22,891 nucleotides of DNA from a virus. Lineage: Duplodnaviria > Heunggongvirae > Uroviricota > Caudoviricetes. Position 1 is the first letter of the stretch. Every line of letters starts with the position of its first letter. The notes under the pieces are model-generated. The model saw only the letters and a program-made list of their open reading frames with translations. It was not told the DNA's origin and made no database searches. This document shows, one piece after another, positions 1-7,571 of this stretch. The stretch spans positions 1 to 22,891 of the IMG/VR virus record IMGVR_UViG_2713896907_000001. One strand, given 5' to 3'. The position numbers and the translations under genes were made by a program.

Positions 1-502
1 TCATCACAGCCCAGTCAGTTTCTCCTGGATGATTTGCATAGAATTGCTCAGGTGTAACAAATTGAGATTTGTCTGTTAAATCATGCAATACCTCATGAAG
101 ATTCATACCAAGATCTGTTCCAACAAGTTCAGAACCAGAGTTAGAGGATAGTTCTTGTTTGAATCTGTCAGGCTCATACTTCAACACATTAGGAAAATAA
201 AACTGCCGCGCTCCATATGCATCATAAACGGCCATAGAATGGCCTTGCACAGTTACGAATTTGGCAATCTGTCCGTTATATACCGGGTAACCAGCAGCGT
301 TAATGATGATTGGTTGCGAAACAGGAACGTGAGAGCCGTCTTCGTTCTCCACATAAACCTGAATCTGGTTTTCAGGATTTACCGGGTCAGTGTCAATTTT
401 ACCGATATAAATTTTGCCATTAGCTACGGCTTTAAAAGAACGAGCCATAGTGAAGAGTTGCGAAGGCATCGATACGATCACATTGGCTGTAATGTCTGTC
501 AT
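1..502 (-). CDS. Tailspike protein, N-terminal head-binding domain (partial; gene continues past the left edge of the window)
   Basis: Not in the ORF track because no stop lies in the window. Manual minus-strand translation from ATG at 502..500 gives [97 protein letters not shown]..., closely matching the remembered P22 tailspike N-terminus ([11 protein letters not shown]...[22 protein letters not shown]...[10 protein letters not shown]...[15 protein letters not shown]). GGAG Shine-Dalgarno upstream. Confidence 0.85.
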
Positions 503-634
503 TTAATTTGCTCCAGATACAAGGAATCGCCGCAGCATGGCTACGGTTGATGTTTGTTGCATACCGAAATGGTACGATTGTTGATTTGTACAGTAGGTTT
601 TACGATGCCATTCCACCCATTTGGTGAGGCATTG

Positions 635-892
635 ATGATGTACAGCAAATACGATGAGGCGCAGTTCCACTTGAGGCTTACGCACGAGTTGCACGCTAAG
701 ATTAAGCAGCGTGCAAAAATGAATAACAGGTCTATCAATTCCGAAATTGTGGCTACGATGGAAGAATCACTCTCCAAACCATCACCTGTAAGCGGGTATC
801 GTGATGAAGAAGAGAGGTTGGCCTCATTAATCTCGGAGCGAGTAAAAGAAGTTGCGGCTGATATCCTTAGAAAAGAAAAAACCCGCGATTAA
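635..892 (+). CDS. Mnt-like ribbon-helix-helix repressor (paralog A)
   Basis: From ATGATG at 635 (GGTGAGG Shine-Dalgarno upstream): MMYSKYDEAQFHLRLTHELHAKIKQRAKMNNRSINSEIVATMEESLSKPSPVSGYRDEEERLASL.... The NGRS-type RHH core and the C-terminal SKPSPV(S/T)GYR..ERLA segment match remembered P22 Mnt; the N-terminal beta-strand residues differ. Upstream part of the track ORF 554..892 is probably not translated. Confidence 0.7.
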   Translation: MMYSKYDEAQFHLRLTHELHAKIKQRAKMNNRSINSEIVATMEESLSKPSPVSGYRDEEERLASLISERVKEVAADILRKEKTRD

Positions 893-900
893 GCGGGTTT
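875..900 (-). terminator. Intrinsic terminator for the minus-strand arc-ant operon (hairpin also overlaps the 3' end of the plus-strand mnt-like gene)
   Basis: Stem ACCCGC (881-886), 6-nt loop, GCGGGT (893-898); on the minus strand it is followed by a TTTTTTCTTTT run. Lies directly after the stop of ORF 907..1128. Confidence 0.6.
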
Positions 901-906
901 AGCTGG

Positions 907-1128
907 TTAGTTATCAAAAAGTCCGTACGTTTCTTCTTCTTCAGGTGTAAGGGGAAGAATCTCTACTCTATCTATAGATACCTTTTCAATGTACCCATGA
1001 GGTCTACTTAAAATTAAAGCTCTCTCATGCCACAGAACTCCAAGAATGTGATACCTTCCAGCATCGCCTTTTACCCTGGCTCTTCCTTTGATTCTTGGCG
1101 GCATAATGCCATATTTTTTCTTTGCCAT
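907..1128 (-). CDS. Hypothetical 73-aa protein, translationally coupled to the upstream antirepressor-like gene
   Basis: ORF MAKKKYGIMPPRIKGRARVKGDAGRYHILGVLWHERALILSRPHGYIEKVSIDRVEILPLTPEEEETYGLFDN; its ATG overlaps the stop of the preceding gene (TAATG at 1126-1130). No family recognised. Confidence 0.45.
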   Translation of the reverse strand: MAKKKYGIMPPRIKGRARVKGDAGRYHILGVLWHERALILSRPHGYIEKVSIDRVEILPLTPEEEETYGLFDN

Positions 1129-1853
1129 TATGCAACATTACTCCCATGAATCAGGTGTTGTAGTGCTTTAACACCTTCCTCATTGTAGCGGAACGCTTCC
1201 ACCTGTTTGCTGGAATGCGCAGATTTATCCAGGAAGAACTTCCCGTACTGCTCAGTTTTGAGGTTGTTTGCGTTAGCAATGCGACCAATCTTGTTGGCCG
1301 TTACTCCAAGCTGCTCTGCAACCTCCCCTGCTGAGTAGTAATGCTCTTCTATTGCCGGAAGAGGTATTGCATTAAAACCAACGAGCGGGTTGATTATACT
1401 TGCTGCCGCTGTCTGCTTTGCCTCCGGCGCAAGATTTGGCATCAGATCGAACAGATTGGTAACAGCTTCAACCGTCATTTTCAATGTTCGCGCTTGACGA
1501 TACTCAACAAGTCCACTCGCTGATTTACCGCTTTTAATGTGCGCTTCCTGCATACTTTCAAGTTTGTCTACAAGTGTTCGGCGAACTGCTTTAGATTCGC
1601 GAGCAGCAACACGAAGCGCCTGCTTGATAGTCATGGAGATAACATCAATGTCAGCCCCGTTTTTCCGACCTACACTTTTTGTGTAGGTCTCGCCTTCCAA
1701 TTCATCCTCAATTTTCTCGATGAATTTGTTGTTACGTACTGATGGCTCTCCACATAACTTGCGAGCTTCATTAACCATCATCAGAAGACTTTGGCTGTCA
1801 ATGGTTTTATCCGTGACAACGGATCCGATGTTTGCTACATTCTTAAAAGTCAT
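1128..1853 (-). CDS. Antirepressor-like protein with C-terminal ANT/KilAC-type DNA-binding region (ant2)
   Basis: Track ORF 1128..1940 begins at a non-ATG codon; the likely start is ATG at 1853 (MTFKNVANIGSV...) preceded by an AAGGAA Shine-Dalgarno. C-terminal segment YYSAGEVAEQLGVTANKIGRIANANNLKTEQYGKFFLDKSAHSSKQVEAFRYNEEGVKAL looks like the helix-turn-helix part of phage antirepressor C-terminal domains. Confidence 0.55.
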   Translation of the reverse strand: MTFKNVANIGSVVTDKTIDSQSLLMMVNEARKLCGEPSVRNNKFIEKIEDELEGETYTKSVGRKNGADIDVISMTIKQALRVAARESKAVRRTLVDKLESMQEAHIKSGKSASGLVEYRQARTLKMTVEAVTNLFDLMPNLAPEAKQTAAASIINPLVGFNAIPLPAIEEHYYSAGEVAEQLGVTANKIGRIANANNLKTEQYGKFFLDKSAHSSKQVEAFRYNEEGVKALQHLIHGSNVA

Positions 1854-1891
1854 TAGGCATTCCTTATGTGGTAGTAAGTGTGTGACATAGG

Positions 1892-1922
1892 CCGCCAGCA
1901 GCACACTGGCGGTTTTCTTTTG
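1892..1922 (+). terminator. Plus-strand intrinsic terminator antisense to the ant1-ant2 junction (candidate end of a sar-like antisense RNA)
   Basis: Perfect 7-bp stem CCGCCAG (1892-1898), 7-nt loop, CTGGCGG (1906-1912), followed on the plus strand by TTTTCTTTTG. No credible plus-strand protein gene ends here. Confidence 0.55.
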
Positions 1923-1940
1923 CGCCGTCCTGTGCACCAA

Positions 1941-2567
1941 TCAATGAATCCATTCCTCGCCGCGAAGTTTTGCCAGCATTGGCTGAGCGTTCTTTACGAC
2001 AAAATTGTTGGTATCAAGATTCTTCATTTCACGAAGAAGTGATTTCTTGGTTTCTTCTGACATGTAGCGAGTCTCATATGCAATATCGTAAATCCTTCCT
2101 GAAAGCTCAGAACCAATTTGCTTCATTCCTGGGTAGATGTGTTTGCACATTTGTTGACTCTTCTCCATCCACAATTGTAAGTAGCAGAGATTAACCAGCT
2201 CTTCGTCAGTGAACTGTTTTGCAATCGGTGAGCATTCTGTCTGCCGATCCAAAATATCCAGCACCCAGCGGCGGAACTCTTTGGCTACCGGAGTGCGAGC
2301 AAACATCGCGATTAGGTGGGCACCGCGTAGTGAGAAAACTCGCACTTTTTTGCGATAATTTCCTGAGGTACTCACTTCGAGTACCTGAGTCATTCCGGCG
2401 CTAAACTCATCGCTATACTTGTTATAAATCATTGTTACTGCACGACTATTTGCGTATTTAAGTGCAGATGCAATATTAGATGATGTAAACCAAACACCAT
2501 GCATATCACGGGTGGGCACCAACTCAACTCCGTGGAAGTTGTAATCTGATTTTGCTACAATATTCAT
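1941..2567 (-). CDS. Antirepressor-like protein, N-terminal (BRO-N/Ant-N type) domain (ant1)
   Basis: Track ORF 1941..2651 would overlap arc; the likely start is ATG at 2567 (MNIVAKSDYNFHGVELVPTRDMHGVWFTSSNIASALKYANSRAVTMIYNKYSDEF...) with an AAGGAAA Shine-Dalgarno. It sits directly downstream of the Arc-like gene, as ant does in the P22 immI region. Confidence 0.55.
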   Translation of the reverse strand: MNIVAKSDYNFHGVELVPTRDMHGVWFTSSNIASALKYANSRAVTMIYNKYSDEFSAGMTQVLEVSTSGNYRKKVRVFSLRGAHLIAMFARTPVAKEFRRWVLDILDRQTECSPIAKQFTDEELVNLCYLQLWMEKSQQMCKHIYPGMKQIGSELSGRIYDIAYETRYMSEETKKSLLREMKNLDTNNFVVKNAQPMLAKLRGEEWIH

Positions 2568-2601
2568 GTTAGTTTCCTTGCATACGGTTACTGACATAGA
2601 G

Positions 2602-2645
2602 GCCCGGTTTGTGTTCGCGCACTGCCGGGCTTCACTATTTTTATT
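2602..2645 (+). terminator. Plus-strand hairpin plus U-rich tract in the arc-ant1 intergenic region (candidate sar-like terminator)
   Basis: GCCCGG (2602-2607) pairs with CCGGGC (2625-2630), with an inner GTG/CAC stem; followed by TTCACTATTTTTATT. Position matches where P22 sar RNA terminates, at the 3' end of arc. Confidence 0.4.
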
Positions 2646-2814
2646 GGGCATTATCTCTTTCCTCTCTCAGGCTTTTAGCCAGTCGCTGCACAATCGCAGA
2701 GTTGATAGAAATTCCATCCATTTCAGCAACACGTCTAATCTCCTCCTTCATTCGCGCTGGCAAACGAAGCTGGAAACTTTGACTTTTACGACCTGTGTAA
2801 AGCACATCTTTCAT
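2641..2814 (-). CDS. arc: Arc-like ribbon-helix-helix repressor
   Basis: From ATG at 2814 (GGGAGG Shine-Dalgarno 7 nt upstream): MKDVLYTGRKSQSFQLRLPARMKEEIRRVAEMDGISINSAIVQRLAKSLREERDNAQ. RHH pattern resembles remembered P22 Arc (PQFNLRWPREVLDLVRKVAEENGRSVNSEIYQRV); divergent from an Mnt-like gene and upstream of ant-like genes. Confidence 0.7.
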   Translation of the reverse strand: MKDVLYTGRKSQSFQLRLPARMKEEIRRVAEMDGISINSAIVQRLAKSLREERDNAQ

Positions 2815-2841
2815 AAGTAATCCTCCCACAATGATACCAAC

Positions 2842-2857
2842 TTGGTTCTAGAACCAA
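2842..2857. promoter_or_regulatory. Perfect 16-bp palindrome TTGGTTCTAGAACCAA in the divergent arc/mnt control region (candidate operator)
   Basis: The sequence at 2842-2857 equals its own reverse complement. It lies in the 96-bp intergenic region between the divergently transcribed Arc-like and Mnt-like genes. A related half-site AAGTTGGT occurs at 2883-2890. Confidence 0.6.
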
Positions 2858-2925
2858 TTTAACACCATTTATTTTGATGTCAAGTTGGTGCTATTGTTTA
2901 GCGAACATCTTTACGTTGAGGTCAT

Positions 2926-3246
2926 ATGAGCAAGTTCCCTAGTCATGAAATGGATAGGTTCAATATCAGGCTTCCTGCAGGAATGCGGGATGCTATAGCT
3001 GAACGAGCAAAACGTAACGGCAGATCAATGAACTCAGAGATTGTTCAGATACTGGAAGATGCCTTGAATGCAGAAAATACACTCGGGGAAATAGCAGATA
3101 AAATCAACAGCGTCTCGGTTCCGCTAAATGTTGATGCGCTAGTTCAACTTCAAGCCCAGGTTATCGCCATGCAAAAAGAAATACAGGAAAAGTTCAGAGA
3201 GCAGAACGAAAAGTTGAGAGAACTGCTAAACAAAAAACCCACCTGA
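2926..3246 (+). CDS. Mnt/Arc-family ribbon-helix-helix repressor (paralog B, in the canonical mnt position)
   Basis: MSKFPSHEMDRFNIRLPAGMRDAIAERAKRNGRSMNSEIVQILEDALNAENTLGEIADKINSV... has the RHH core (FNIRLP ... NGRSMNSEIVQ) followed by a coiled-coil-like C-terminus. Divergent from arc, as mnt is in P22 immI. Confidence 0.7.
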   Translation: MSKFPSHEMDRFNIRLPAGMRDAIAERAKRNGRSMNSEIVQILEDALNAENTLGEIADKINSVSVPLNVDALVQLQAQVIAMQKEIQEKFREQNEKLRELLNKKPT

Positions 3247-3271
3247 AGGTGGGTTAATTTTTGCCTTTTTT
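3231..3271. terminator. Bidirectional intrinsic terminator
   Basis: Stem AACCCACC (3236-3243), loop TGAA, GGTGGGTT (3248-3255). Flanked by an A-run upstream and TTTTTGCCTTTTTT downstream, so a U-tract follows the hairpin on either strand. Separates the immI genes from the upstream moron cluster and late operon. Confidence 0.65.
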
Positions 3272-3345
3272 GGACCATATTGACTACTTATAAAATGAGA
3301 TCAATATTTAATCGCCCAATAACGGGTATATGTTGAGGTATATCA

Positions 3346-3524
3346 TGGCGAAAAAACCAGGTGAAAACACAGGAAAAAACGGCGGAATATACCAAGAAGT
3401 TGGCCCACGCGGCGGTAAGAAAGACAATTTTGCAACCGTCAAGGACAACGAAAGGCTTCCACCAACAACAAAGCCAGGTCATGGCTGGGTATTGGATAAG
3501 CGAACTCCAGACAGCAAAAAGTAA
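3346..3524 (+). CDS. YjzC-like small protein
   Basis: From ATG at 3346 (GAGGT Shine-Dalgarno): MAKKPGENTGKNGGIYQEVGPRGGKKDNFATVKDNERLPPTTKPGHGWVLDKRTPDSKK. The KPGE..G.Y.EVG..G and P.T...H.W pattern resembles the YjzC-like family as I remember it. Has its own upstream region after the bidirectional terminator. Confidence 0.55.
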
Positions 3525-3537
3525 TAATCAAGCCGGG

Positions 3538-3903
3538 TCACTCCGGCTTTTTGATATGTCGCTCGCAGAACTCAACAAGCCTGCTCATTAAGTAGCAGTA
3601 AGTCTCGTTGGCTCTTCCTGGTTCAACATCAACACCTACCCTTGAGCAGATATCGAATGCCATGTGAGCGCACTCATGGGCAATAGTAGATAGTTTGCCA
3701 TTGAACACGCCTATCACATGCAAAACACCATTCTCGCTACTCATTGTATGAGACGCTCCGTTGGCGTCCGAGTCATGCACGTCAACGCCAAGTTTTTGAT
3801 GCAGGCGTTGCCATTCTGGAAAGTCTCTACAAAACACAATTGTACCGCTCTCAAAGAGCGGAACGAGCATCTTTGGTACGTTTCCAATGTTAACTTTTTT
3901 CAT
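3538..3903 (-). CDS. Small HExxH zincin-like protein (possible minimal ImmA/IrrE- or SprT-like metallopeptidase fold)
   Basis: From ATG at 3903: MKKVNIGNVPKMLVPLFESGTIVFCRDFPEWQRLHQKLGVDVHDSDANGASHTMSSENGVLHVIGVFNGKLSTIAHECAHMAFDICSRVGVDVEPGRANETYCYLMSRLVEFCERHIKKPE. HECAH motif, with a Glu 17 residues downstream and an ANETYCYLM segment reminiscent of the ImmA/IrrE E..AN.FA..LL motif. Confidence 0.5.
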   Translation of the reverse strand: MKKVNIGNVPKMLVPLFESGTIVFCRDFPEWQRLHQKLGVDVHDSDANGASHTMSSENGVLHVIGVFNGKLSTIAHECAHMAFDICSRVGVDVEPGRANETYCYLMSRLVEFCERHIKKPE

Positions 3904-3933
3904 GGTATCCTGCACAAAACTAAGGAGGTTGGT

Positions 3934-4323
3934 GTGAAGCGATTTCTTGCTGCTATGTTCTTATTCATATCTTTTGAGGCTACAGCAGAGTGCTGGGTCG
4001 TTGGAGATATGCGCGGAATAAGCTATTCAGAACGAAATAATTTCCATCCGGAAGAAGATGGTTTTAGTGGAACATTCATCATTAAGACAAGCGGTGAAGA
4101 TGCCAGCATCACATATTCTGGGACAGATGCGGGCGGCATGGCTTACAAAGCATTGTCTAAAAACTCCATCATAGGAATCGGCGCGAATGGCGAAACTCAA
4201 CGCGTTATCGACTCATGGGTAATACATCCTACTGGAACAGTTTTAATGTCAAAAACCATTTCCGGTTATGGAAATATGGATTCAACCAAAGCTTTTGTTG
4301 GAAAAGTAAAAAGAAAATGTTAG
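3934..4323 (+). CDS. Hypothetical exported protein with N-terminal signal peptide
   Basis: The track ORF 3718..4323 is antisense to the HExxH gene over its 5' half. The likely start is GTG at 3934, 5 nt after an AAGGAGG Shine-Dalgarno (3922-3928). Product MKRFLAAMFLFISFEATAECWVVGDMRG... has a basic n-region, hydrophobic core and ATA-E cleavage-like site; no lipobox. Confidence 0.5.
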   Translation: MKRFLAAMFLFISFEATAECWVVGDMRGISYSERNNFHPEEDGFSGTFIIKTSGEDASITYSGTDAGGMAYKALSKNSIIGIGANGETQRVIDSWVIHPTGTVLMSKTISGYGNMDSTKAFVGKVKRKC

Positions 4324-4347
4324 CGATTGAATCCAATTTCCCATACG

Positions 4348-6222
4348 TTACTGCTGTGTTGCCTCAGTAGCAAACAGCGGTCTGATGGCATTCGCAGCGT
4401 TATTTAGCGCTCTTTCATAGGCTGGTGTTCCTGCTTTGGTGTTTGCCAAACGAAGAAGCATATTCCTTGCGGCTTTGGACTCATACAAACGCATCATTGC
4501 ACCAAAGCCAGCCTCAAGCCCCATTGATACTCCAAGAGTCGCAGTTGCGCCAATCGTCCTTATCCTGTTGGCTTGTGATTGCCCCGTCTGAGTTACTACA
4601 TTTGCGGTGTCTGACCTTGCTGTTTGCTGTAGAACTTCATGAAGAGCATCAAGCTCTTTCATGTGCTTTCCAGAAAAAATAGTGTTGTAAATTTCACCGC
4701 CTGACTGAGATTTAAGCTTATTAACTTCAGTGATGAACTTGGCTGGAGAGTCACCGGCCTTTTCCGCTATTTTGCTGACGTAAGCTGCACGCATAGCATC
4801 TTTCCCTTTATCATCCAATGCGCTCCAGATTCGTTTCACGTCAGATGGCTTTCTGCTTAATACAACGGTATTTATAAGTTCAGGACTGGCTTCACTGCTT
4901 GCCTTGTTGAGCTTGTTAGCAATGTTTTTATTAAGCACCTTATTATAAACGTTTGCATAATCGGAGTTTGCTTTAAGGTATTTTGCTGCGTCTGATGCAC
5001 CGAGGTTTTTTGCAACTGCGCTACGAAGATCTTTTGACATTGCATTCTCTACCATATTGGTAGCTGCTTTTGCCTGGTTGGGGAAGACCATAGCATCTCC
5101 CTGAACATTGGATCTAAATGCTGTTCTGTGCTGACGCAAGAGATCAAACGTAACATCCAAATCAGTTGCAGGGTTTGCTAATTCTTCACGTAGGTTACGC
5201 AAGGATGTAAGCAGGCTTTGATTGGCAGACGTCCCAAGCCGTTCCTGTCTTGCGATCGCTGTATTCAGAGCATTCATGGTATTTGTGGTATCAACTGCGG
5301 CATTACCCATTTTATTGGTGACGTCATTGATAACAGCGCCAGCGGCATCCTTCCGTCCCCTTAACGTGGTGGTCAGAGATTTCACCACATCATCAGGGTT
5401 GTACTCACCAAAACGGTCAAAATAATTGCTTACCAGCTTACTACGCGTTGCATATTGCTCCGCTCGCTTTGAGCCTGTCCCGAGCAAAGCCCCCTCAGCA
5501 TCCTGAGTAAGTCCGCGAGTGAAAGCATTTTTCGGCGGGATAACATCAGATGTCATTGGTGTCACGCCCATCGATTCTGATGTGGCAATTTTCTTCGCCA
5601 CTTCTGGCGCAATATCACCTTTTATAGCCGTTATTCCACGCCCTATTCCCTTTGCTGCTGCGGAAAGAACACCCTGAGCGGCAAGGTTAACTCCGGCATT
5701 TTTAGCTGCATTTTGTGCGAAATCACCTTTCTGATTTGCGGCCTCTGCCAGTGATCCAATAGCCATGCTTCCTGCCGTTCCAACTCCTGGAACTAAATAC
5801 CCGCCAATTGTTTCTCCAGCTTGAGCGTAGGGGTCTGTCGGTCTGTCTACTGGACGATAGACATCATCCAATACTTTTGGCCCACCAAGCCCCTGACTGA
5901 TTGCATTAATCAGACTTGCGCCACCCTGCAATACGTCAAATGGTATGTTTACCAGACCACGACCAGCCTGTTCTGCAATTTGCCCTGCACTTTGACCACC
6001 AGTGAGCCAATCGCCAGCTTGTTGCATCAATGATGGTTCTTCTTTCTGCTGCTGAGGCGGAGGGTATGCTGCATAAAACTGATCTCTTGCTTCAGCCCAT
6101 TTGTCACCAGCCTTAGGGGCAACAACCTCATCAAAATATTGCGCTTGAGCCTGTGCTTTCTGTTCTTCAGTTAACGCCTGATACTGTGGAGAAGCGATAA
6201 CATCTTTCCATGCTTTAGCCAT
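4348..6222 (-). CDS. Ejection (injection) protein, P22 gp16-like
   Basis: 624-aa ORF in the gp16 position, last of the 14-7-20-16 ejection block; size close to P22 gp16; Ala/Gly-rich low-complexity internal region typical of these proteins. Confidence 0.75.
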
Positions 6223-7571
6223 TAATCACCCCATAAAGACGAGAAACCGGACTTATTGCTGTCGCTTCCTGATTTTCGCTCACTAACATATGTGTCATAA
6301 CCTGATGAACTATATCCCATTGATTCAGCCTCCCTTGCTGCAACCTTTTGAAATACAGAATATTGCGATCGGATTTCAGATAACTGTTTTCTGACGACCT
6401 CTTCAGGCTGTGTTATATCGAGTTTCGCGATCAGGTTTTCCAGTTTTTGGCCTTCAGCATTGGAGAGGCTACCCATACCTCGCATAGTCTGCACGTTCTG
6501 GACAAACGCCCCCGACTTTAATTCTTCTATCGCATTACGGTTTGCAAGCCCTTCAGCACTTGTGAAGCCATCTATATTTCTTCCTTCGAAGCGACCAATA
6601 CCTTCAAGCTCCTTCTTACCAAGCAAAGAATCAATTTTCTCTATCCCTCGCTCACCAGTAATTAACGCATTGTTGTAATTATTGTTGCCATCAAGCCATC
6701 TCTTAGCCTGAGACATTCTGGCTGACGTTGCAGCTTTACCGGTTAGCGGATCAATTCCCGTCGCTGCTATCTGTGAGTTAAGAGACAAAACATCCATATC
6801 CTGAAGTTGTCCTGCTCTTTCAAGGGCCGCCTGTGACTGCTTAAACACATACTTGTCGTGATTCAGTCTTGCCATTTGAGCCTTATAGGAAAGATCCTGA
6901 CCCCTAATAGCCCTCGCATTCGTCATGTCATTATTGCGAATGGTTTCTTTAATTCTTTGCTGCTCCTGCTGGCGACCAACCATCTTATCCTGAACAGCAA
7001 ACGCCTTTTCTGGTCCAAGCGCACCGAGAGACATAGTAGTCAGCATGTGTGATAGCTGCTCTGGATTCTGGATACCTGTCTGAATCATCCAGTCAGCATT
7101 AGCGCCAACGCGATTTAACCTGTCCTTGTTGTCAGTAATGAATTTACTGTAGGCTTCCGGTCCCTGAGAAAGAGCGACGTTAGCTCTCATGGCTAAATCG
7201 CCCATATCGTTGCGTTGCTGCTCATTAAGACCGGAAAACGCCTGTTGTGCCTGCGCAACAAACGCTGGATTTTCCTTGGCAAACTTAAATAGTCCCGATG
7301 GATCACCAGAAGCCCATGCATCAGCATGAACCTTATTGAACGCATTAATCGCTTTCTGTTGCTGTTCCTGCTTATAAATATCAGCAACTCCAGCCAGACC
7401 ACGTAACGCGGTCAGACCAACGTTATTTGCACCTGAGCGAGCCAACTCATTGTTTTCGCGGATCAGACCAAGCGTTGCGTTAATGTCGCTTGCCTTTGGC
7501 GCATTCTCATTTTGCGTACCGATGCCAGCCAGAAAACCACCAGAATTAATACCCTGTTGCCACGTAGCCAT
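6222..7571 (-). CDS. Ejection protein, P22 gp20-like
   Basis: 449-aa ORF between gp7-like and gp16-like genes; stop overlaps the start of the next gene; size and position match P22 gp20. Confidence 0.75.

Follow-up and report, generated by a model that had tools for sequence, protein, structure and literature searches.

Two antirepressor-type genes, each with a predicted antisense RNA, in the Arc-type ant operon of a P22-like Escherichia coli prophage

Results

Gene content and transcription signals of the operon

The DNA analysed here, a stretch of 22,891 nucleotides (nt; IMG/VR record IMGVR_UViG_2713896907_000001, positions 1 to 22,891; hereafter the window), comes from a P22-like (Lederbergvirus) Escherichia coli prophage and shows its late region in reverse direction. 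It contains an operon in which an arc-like gene is followed by two genes of antirepressor type, ant1 and ant2, and by an open reading frame (ORF) for 73 amino acids (aa), ORF73. All four genes are co-directional on the minus strand, in the order arc, ant1, ant2, ORF73, as the original prediction had described, and PGAP annotates the identical four genes in an E. coli genome of 99.4% identity. The products of ant1, ant2 and ORF73 match PHROG families with E values of 2e-53, 2e-102 and 5e-54, respectively, and these genes are therefore not chance ORFs. The features of the operon are as follows.

2926-3246, plus strand: gene for a 106-aa ribbon-helix-helix protein of the Arc/Mnt family (PF03869, E 1.6e-20; phrog_1287), divergent from arc and in the place that mnt has in P22
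2828-2844 and 2881-2897, no strand assigned: candidate operator, 17-nt inverted arms flanking the Pant-like promoter (inverted-repeat search)
centre 2849/2850, no strand assigned: candidate operator palindrome with core TTGGTTCTAGAACCAA (2842-2857), overlapping the -10 element and start site of the Pant-like promoter
2856-2883, minus strand: Pant-like sigma-70 promoter, TTGACA-16-TAAATT with TG in front (promoter scan, 10/12 matches)
2641-2814, minus strand: arc-like repressor gene, 57 aa (PF03869, E 1e-11; 42% identity to P22 Arc; PGAP)
2533-2645, plus strand: predicted sar-like antisense RNA unit, complementary to the ant1 ribosome site
1941-2567, minus strand: ant1, 208 aa (Pfam; phrog_245; BLASTP to P22 Ant)
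1813-1925, plus strand: predicted second antisense RNA unit (promoter and terminator scans, conservation, covariation, covariance model)
1128-1853, minus strand: ant2, 241 aa (P1-Ant-type N domain at about 14-105, central helices, MerR/Xis-like winged-helix C domain at about 170-237)
907-1128, minus strand: ORF73, coupled to ant2 through TAATG
879-900, minus strand: intrinsic terminator, AAACCCGC-TTAATC-GCGGGTTT then TTTCTTTTCT, directly after ORF73 (terminator scan)

The Pant-like promoter has the position of P22 Pant, ahead of arc, and would drive arc, ant1, ant2 and ORF73. The hairpin at 900-879 is the sole strong intrinsic terminator on the minus strand in the terminator scan, in agreement with the claim that a single terminator closes the gene set; it includes the stop codon of a convergent mnt-like gene. 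By analogy with the operators of P22 Arc and Mnt (Oarc and Omnt), the palindrome and the inverted arms are likely to be bound as operators by Arc and the 106-aa repressor. We note that positions 2972-3253, within the region of the 106-aa gene, share 95% DNA identity with parts of numerous Stx1 and Stx2 phages (2851, YYZ-2008, Stx2a_WGPS and others), and that the matching stretch lacks annotation in several of those records. In phage JEP4 (Lederbergvirus; MT740315, L001) a 'repressor protein C2' is annotated at 6199-6768, within the corresponding region, where the window has the 106-aa gene.

ant1 has the domains of a complete antirepressor

In the original prediction ant1 was described by an N-terminal antirepressor-type domain only. 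That domain is present, as Bro-N (PF02498) at residues 23-105 (E 1.9e-10, 41.6 bits vs a cut-off of 25.6), and a second one had been overlooked: residues 117-184 match P22_AR_C (PF10548) with an E value of 2.7e-14, exceeding the curated cut-off. Consistent with this, residues 119-187 align to residues 206-274 of P22 Ant (BLASTP, E 1e-9), and the best PHROG family is phrog_245, 'anti-repressor Ant'. P22_AR_N (PF10547), which P22 Ant itself matches with an E value of 5e-44, has no match in ant1, where Bro-N is found instead, nor in ant2. The gene had also been given an end coordinate of 2651; this corresponds to the earliest ATG in the frame and overlaps the arc stop codon, and translation is likely to begin at 2567, with an ATG that PGAP also uses and that is served by an AAGGA ribosome site. 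We conclude that, judged by its domain content, ant1 by itself codes for a complete protein of the antirepressor family, with two domains. Salmonella phage SPN3UB has a copy of 76% identity without ant2. The Ant protein of Phi24B (Fogg 2011) was also considered as a relative of ant2 and rejected; it is a P22_AR_C-type protein and bears on ant1.

ant2 joins a P1-Ant-type domain to a winged-helix half

The ant2 product belongs to phrog_1726, 'anti-repressor', over its full length, and almost all of its 2045 homologues carry the label hypothetical. Its sequence has no match in Pfam, NCBIfam or PDB, and PADLOC, NCBIfam and PDB sequence searches returned nothing useful for ant2 or ORF73. The ANT/KilAC-type C-terminus that had been ascribed to it was not found: PF03374 is absent from ant2 at E<=0.1, and from ant2 plus 24 homologues at E<=1. 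The scan of these 25 family members gave only weak HTH_17 matches, and with the same library P1 Ant1 and P1 KilA score PF03374 at 1e-30 and 2e-32, respectively. Neither was there any match to P22_AR_C or any similarity to any part of P22 Ant.

It can be seen from a tblastn search against phages that residues 14-105 of the ant2 product are 73% identical (E 2e-43) to residues 112-206 of P1 Ant1, which correspond to Ant2 residues 29-123; hhalign gives a probability of 99.9% for the relationship of the ant2 N domain with P1 Ant. According to the annotation of the P1 record, Ant antagonises C1 repression in an Ant1/Ant2/C1 complex. It is thus not the case that both proteins of the operon belong to unrelated families devoid of antirepressor domains. 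The C half of the ant2 product is a MerR/Xis-like winged helix, and in a species-level scan each half was seen to be exchanged independently of the other. In Xenorhabdus and Photorhabdus the C half is joined to KilA-N, and in P1 and Pantoea ant2-type N domains are joined to ANT/KilAC; the C half of ant2 fills an architectural slot that is held elsewhere by KilAC. In JEP4 the ant1 homologue (5142-5780) is labelled 'Rha protein' and the ant2 homologue (4329-5054) 'KilA protein', neither of which is backed by Pfam scans.

Each ant gene is overlapped by a predicted antisense RNA

The spacer between arc and ant1 aligns with the arc-sar-ant spacer of P22, with the hairpin kept, and ACATGAATAnTnTA, which contains the Psar -10 element, is retained at the same distance from the ATG as in P22. 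On the plus strand, a predicted promoter, TGGAAG-17-(TGc)TACAAT at 2533-2561, would start transcription near 2568, and a terminator hairpin at 2599-2633 is followed by a U-rich tail to about 2645. The plus strand of this spacer folds stably into two hairpins (-33.3 kcal/mol, z -5.7), and a G.U pair in the antisense hairpin is valid on the plus strand only. The Rfam sar model (RF00262), with which P22 scores 97.8 bits, has no match at E<=1 in window positions 1-4500. From its position and alignment, we regard the putative ant1 antisense RNA as a positional homologue of P22 sar. A match to SymR (RF01809) at 2565-2636 scored 21.8 bits, vs a gathering score of 61, and was rejected as a chance resemblance of two-hairpin antisense RNAs.

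A second unit of this kind is predicted over the start of ant2. Its promoter, GTGACA-17-(TGc)TACATT at 1813-1841, would start transcription near 1847, and its terminator consists of a stem at 1890-1914 and then a U run (UUUUCUUUU). The predicted RNA of about 75 nt covers both the ant2 ATG (1851-1853) and the ribosome site (1861-1865). The promoter pattern GTGACA-N17-(TGn)TA...T occurs at a fixed offset from the ATG in all 20 of 20 loci, at ant2 identities down to 42%, and its conserved positions include synonymous ones: Val13 is always GTC, Ala, Ser or Thr is always xCA, and Leu or Val is always xTA. Residues 1-12 of the ant2 product vary, and residues 1-14 are disordered in the predicted model. 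We also observed that, at 1813-1853, the invariant Val13-Thr14 and several fixed synonymous positions coincide with the antisense -35, TG and -10 elements. The constraint on ant2 codons 1-14 seems to be one of DNA sequence and not of protein sequence.

The terminator hairpin with its U run is present in 19/19 loci. Covariation was counted on an alignment of the hairpin only; compensatory changes are seen in five of the eight stem pairs and pairing is kept in 99% of cells, values that were reached in none of 500 shuffles, while slid controls were at most 51% paired. The G.U pairs of this stem are valid on the antisense strand only. A covariance model of the RNA (R1) matches the window at 1847-1925 with 64 bits. 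It also finds matches ahead of second genes other than ant2, namely the ORF6N gene of SPN3UB, genes with only the C half of ant2, and genes in which an ant2-type N domain is joined to ANT; matches were recorded in L004 (3965-4034) and in L089-L092, L094, L095, L099, L104-L106 and L114, and none was found in P1. No Rfam family matches the element in the ant1-ant2 spacer (window 1-4500). By these comparisons, the predicted ant2 antisense RNA belongs to a family that has good support from covariation, is distinct from, and not homologous to, sar and is absent from Rfam. A 5' stem-loop presenting bases complementary to the ribosome site is seen in most single-sequence folds; it was not recovered by RNAalifold and we do not claim it.

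Both ant genes therefore have the layout of sar, with a predicted promoter within the first codons of the target, a transcript across the ribosome site and a terminator in the upstream spacer, and both are probably under sar-type translational control. The spacer together with about the first 15 codons of the second gene (consensus ..NVA..GSVVT.) is, on the evidence of these comparisons, a conserved junction between exchangeable genes.

ant2 lies behind a variable first ant gene

In every immI-type locus that we read, from more than 12 genera, a variable first ant gene is followed by ant2. Fourteen of 14 full-length homologues from different species have ant2 72-130 nt behind another ant gene, as have 18/18 places that were looked up (Enterobacteriaceae metagenome contigs, Morganella, Serratia and Klebsiella), the majority with tail genes of siphovirus type on both sides, and 39 of the 41 P22-like loci in IMG/VR. 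The first gene codes for Bro-N only, for Bro-N with P22_AR_C, or for P22_AR_N with P22_AR_C; in loci L009, L041 and L078, and in 4/41 IMG/VR loci, it is an intact P22-type Ant of 296-300 aa with both P22_AR_N and P22_AR_C. No C-terminal motif common to the first-gene partners was found.

Copies of ant2 without a first ant are exceptions, and are found in Stx2a phages and in phiKp_30, where ant1 is reduced to its last eight codons ahead of ant2. In the Stx2a phages the ant2 homologue (62% identity) follows a DUF551 gene in the early-left region, outside any immI-type operon, and in Stx2a phage PA2 (L054, NC_028449, 3492-4230) it is frameshifted into two annotated ORFs. The idea that the PA2 gene had been studied by experiment finds no support in the published text and was rejected. 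Among the Morganella prophages, one (L057) has three ant-type genes in a row, P1-Ant-like, Bro-N and ant2, and in L055-L057 the ant/ant2 operon stands opposite a CI/LexA-like repressor with a helix-turn-helix and peptidase S24, not one of Arc/Mnt type.

ORF73 is a coupled, probably accessory gene of narrow distribution

The description of ORF73 as a coupled gene whose product has a basic N-terminus held up: at 1128 the stop codon of ant2 and the start codon of ORF73 share the sequence TAATG, and the basic N-terminus reads MAKKKYGIMPPRIKGRARVK. The coupling occurs in the window and in 39/41 of the IMG/VR P22-like loci. The product is a small, putative SH3-like protein with no Pfam family match. 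Its family is real but narrow, with eight close clusters, ten matches among 1.8 billion representative proteins and 42 proteins in a profile search, and has the motif KYGxMPP..KGDAG.Y.v.G.DW..vl..R.G...i..V. ORF73 is not found behind ant2 in siphovirus-type loci or in phiKp_30, and is linked to ant2 in P22-like phages only. Distant relatives lie near tail-fibre, lysis, toxin-antitoxin or defence genes without ant2 nearby; one of them, from Serratia, is near an ORF6N regulator. ORF73 is probably a separately acquired accessory gene that is co-expressed with ant2. Gp22 and gp23 of SPN3UB, tried as relatives of ant2 and ORF73, were rejected for lack of similarity.

The operon is a further type of the variable ant moron

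We assign the window to a P22-like phage because of its P22 tailspike head-binding domain, its DNA-transfer protein, its Arc/Mnt genes and its identity to JEP4, which is 98% at the DNA level over two thirds of the length of window positions 800-3300. The same positions are matched full-length at 95% identity or more in eight listed E. coli genomes, and at least 80% of them are covered in 22 genomes. The variable segment between the tailspike and ejection-protein genes of such phages is the 'ant moron', or immunity I (immI), which is in rapid flux, with ten types among sixteen genomes (Villafane et al. 2008, PMC2629481). The region described here is a further type of this known, highly variable moron, and its DNA is already in public genomes. 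Its remaining genes and its neighbours are listed below.

1-512, minus strand: P22-type tailspike head-binding domain
635-892, plus strand: 85-aa P22 Mnt homologue, 47% identical to residues 4-76 of P22 Mnt; convergent with the ant operon
3345-3524, plus strand: 59-aa protein, P22 orf59a-like/YjzC-like, phrog_3202; ant-moron ORF
3538-3903, minus strand: 121-aa protein, phrog_1365; ant-moron ORF
about 3976-4323, plus strand: protein of about 115 aa with a hydrophobic, signal-peptide-like N-terminus, phrog_2651; ant-moron ORF
4348-6222, minus strand: DNA-transfer (ejection) protein

The similarity of the 85-aa protein to P22 Mnt includes the C-terminal part. At the position of its gene, before the tailspike gene, L015, L017 and L050 have a complete second P22-type mnt-arc-ant set. 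The window is thus a 'double immI' in which the second, P22-type set is reduced to mnt, and the promoter region of this mnt homologue (513-634) now directly faces the tailspike gene.

Discussion

The reading that we favour, with some reserve, is that this is an Arc-controlled operon for two independent antirepressor-type proteins of different build, each held in check by its own antisense RNA, which jointly widen the range of repressors that the phage can counter; we think this somewhat more likely than not. Transcription would run from the Pant-like promoter (2883-2856) to the terminator at 900-879. By analogy with P22, the divergent 106-aa ribbon-helix-helix protein would keep the promoter shut in the lysogen, and Arc would shut it again after infection. 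Each ant cistron would be blocked by a short cis-antisense RNA across its ribosome site and start codon, the elements of which can be located and from which we infer the function. As in the case of P22 Ant, P1 Ant and the Gifsy antirepressors, Ant1 and Ant2 might each bind and inactivate prophage repressors, and together they could cover more repressor types, be they of the phage itself or of prophages in the same host. ORF73 would be an accessory protein with an SH3-like fold, its synthesis tied to that of Ant2 by translational coupling. Antirepressors that act against several co-resident prophages, by inactivating their repressors, have been described (Lemire et al. 2011, as summarised in PMC8044961). 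Of the possibilities that had been raised for this locus, two antirepressors of different specificity is the best fit: the proteins are complete members of different antirepressor-type families, and ant2 has a domain of 73% identity in common with P1 Ant, which is known from experiment.

Several points weigh against this interpretation. The activities of Ant1, Ant2 and ORF73 are read from sequence relationships, and the two RNAs are likewise predictions. The phage's own immC repressor lies outside the window. The strict adjacency of ant2 to a first ant gene fits dependence of one protein on the other as well as it fits independence. Finally, the N domain of ant2 is probably not the determinant of repressor specificity, because it is 73% identical to that of P1 Ant while, to our knowledge, the P1 C1 repressor is unrelated to the lambdoid repressors.

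The adjacent, co-directional arrangement of ant1 and ant2, and the fact that only ant1 has an antirepressor N domain recognised by Pfam, might suggest that they are the halves of an ancestral P22-type ant that was broken by a frameshift or stop codon and that now act jointly or not at all. This is refuted by the domain maps and by the loci in which a full-length P22-type Ant is followed by ant2, and we give it next to no credence. Here ant1 has an N domain of its own and already holds the P22 Ant C-terminal domain, and ant2 aligns to no part of P22 Ant, such that the two do not reconstitute one protein; moreover, they are full-length matches to separate PHROG families, are separated by an 87-nt spacer with conserved elements of its own, and ant2 stands behind an intact 296-300-aa Ant in other prophages. 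A more serious alternative, albeit one that we consider unlikely, is that the two proteins form a hetero-complex in the manner of P1 Ant1/Ant2, in which the variable first Ant (or Ant2) gives repressor specificity and the other subunit a common function. The constant position of ant2 behind another ant gene (14/14, 18/18 and 39/41 loci), its P1 Ant N domain and the complex with C1 recorded for P1 Ant1 and Ant2 all point in this direction. However, the upstream partners are of at least three architectures and lack a common C-terminal motif, which makes a common specific interface unlikely; Stx2a phages and phiKp_30 have relatives of ant2 but no first ant, and SPN3UB has ant1 but no ant2; and recombination at the conserved junction module could also account for the adjacency. 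Our original prediction of an antirepressor with a partner may hold for ant2, given its strict adjacency to a first ant, and is unlikely for ORF73, the relatives of which occur without ant genes.

Somewhat less probable again is that ant2 is a DNA-binding or host-directed regulator, such as a transcription factor or a modulator of the SOS response like AriS, and is merely carried along in an ant operon. Against this, P1 Ant, with the same N domain, is a documented antirepressor; ant2 has the sar-type antisense control expected where leakage endangers lysogeny; and it is without the ANT/KilAC domain that carries AriS activity. To a similar degree we doubt that ORF73 is a dedicated partner of Ant2, be it chaperone, inhibitor or specificity factor. 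The TAATG coupling, in the window and in 39/41 loci, would be in keeping with such a role, as would the frequent part of SH3-like folds in protein or nucleic-acid binding; on the other hand, ant2 has 2045 homologues vs 42 for ORF73, siphovirus-type loci and phiKp_30 have ant2 without ORF73, and distant ORF73 relatives are found with no ant2 nearby. A broader idea, to which we attach no more weight than to a hetero-complex, is that the recurrent series of any first ant, antisense-RNA spacer and second regulator is a two-part switch, in which ant2 would work with the first ant after the manner of P1 Ant1 and Ant2, the RNA would set their ratio and the junction would allow genes to be swapped.

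Returning to the favoured reading of two independent antirepressor-type proteins, antirepressors decide whether a prophage stays silent and so shape induction, cross-talk between prophages and toxin release in pathogens. The present analysis removes the false lead of a broken ant gene and corrects the misleading public labels 'Rha protein' and 'KilA protein' in JEP4. It also shows that many enterobacterial prophages have a fixed pair, a variable first antirepressor and then a conserved, P1-Ant-related second protein. In the literature searched we found no description of the unit of variable ant, antisense RNA and ant2, of the link between ant2 and P1 Ant, or of the second antisense RNA family. 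Clear experiments follow from these observations, although no new principle does.

Comparison with known systems

The closest parallel is immI of P22. Both loci lie between the ejection-protein and tailspike genes, begin with an Arc-family gene, have a divergent repressor of the Arc/Mnt family, an ant gene directly after arc, a sar-homologous spacer and a terminator before the tailspike side, and the ant1 C domain is homologous to that of P22 Ant. They differ in that ant1 has Bro-N rather than P22_AR_N, that ant2, ORF73 and the second antisense RNA are added here, that the Rfam sar model is without a match here, and that the position of mnt is taken by the 106-aa ribbon-helix-helix gene, with the true Mnt homologue downstream and convergent.

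With P1 Ant1/Ant2 the operon shares the ant2 N domain and the presence of antirepressor-operon genes under (here predicted) antisense-RNA control. P1 Ant, however, ends in ANT/KilAC (PF03374, E 1e-30) and ant2 in an unrelated winged-helix half, and P1 makes its two proteins in one frame and uses the trans-acting C4 RNA and coupling to icd; no counterpart of icd or c4 was found ahead of ant2 in the window. The arc-ant-gp22-gp23 module of SPN3UB has arc, the 76% identical ant1, the same spacer, in which the covariance model recognises the antisense RNA family (E 7e-6), and then a second regulator gene and a coupled small ORF. There the second gene codes for a protein with an ORF6N domain and has no relation to ant2, nor is the coupled ORF, of 90 aa, related to ORF73; the module lies among siphovirus tail genes.

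More distant likenesses can be drawn to AriS of a Listeria phage, the activity of which maps to its ANT/KilAC domain (PMC9043618), and to regulators that combine Bro-N, AntA or Rha with KilAC. These share a variable N-terminal regulatory domain, an exchangeable C-terminal domain and a place in prophage regulatory regions; ant1 and ant2, by contrast, both lack ANT/KilAC, and there is no similarity in sequence. The Gifsy-type antirepressors, which we liken by description only, are small and LexA-controlled and not two-domain proteins under Arc and antisense control, and what they have in common with the reading proposed here is the idea of inactivating the repressors of several co-resident prophages.

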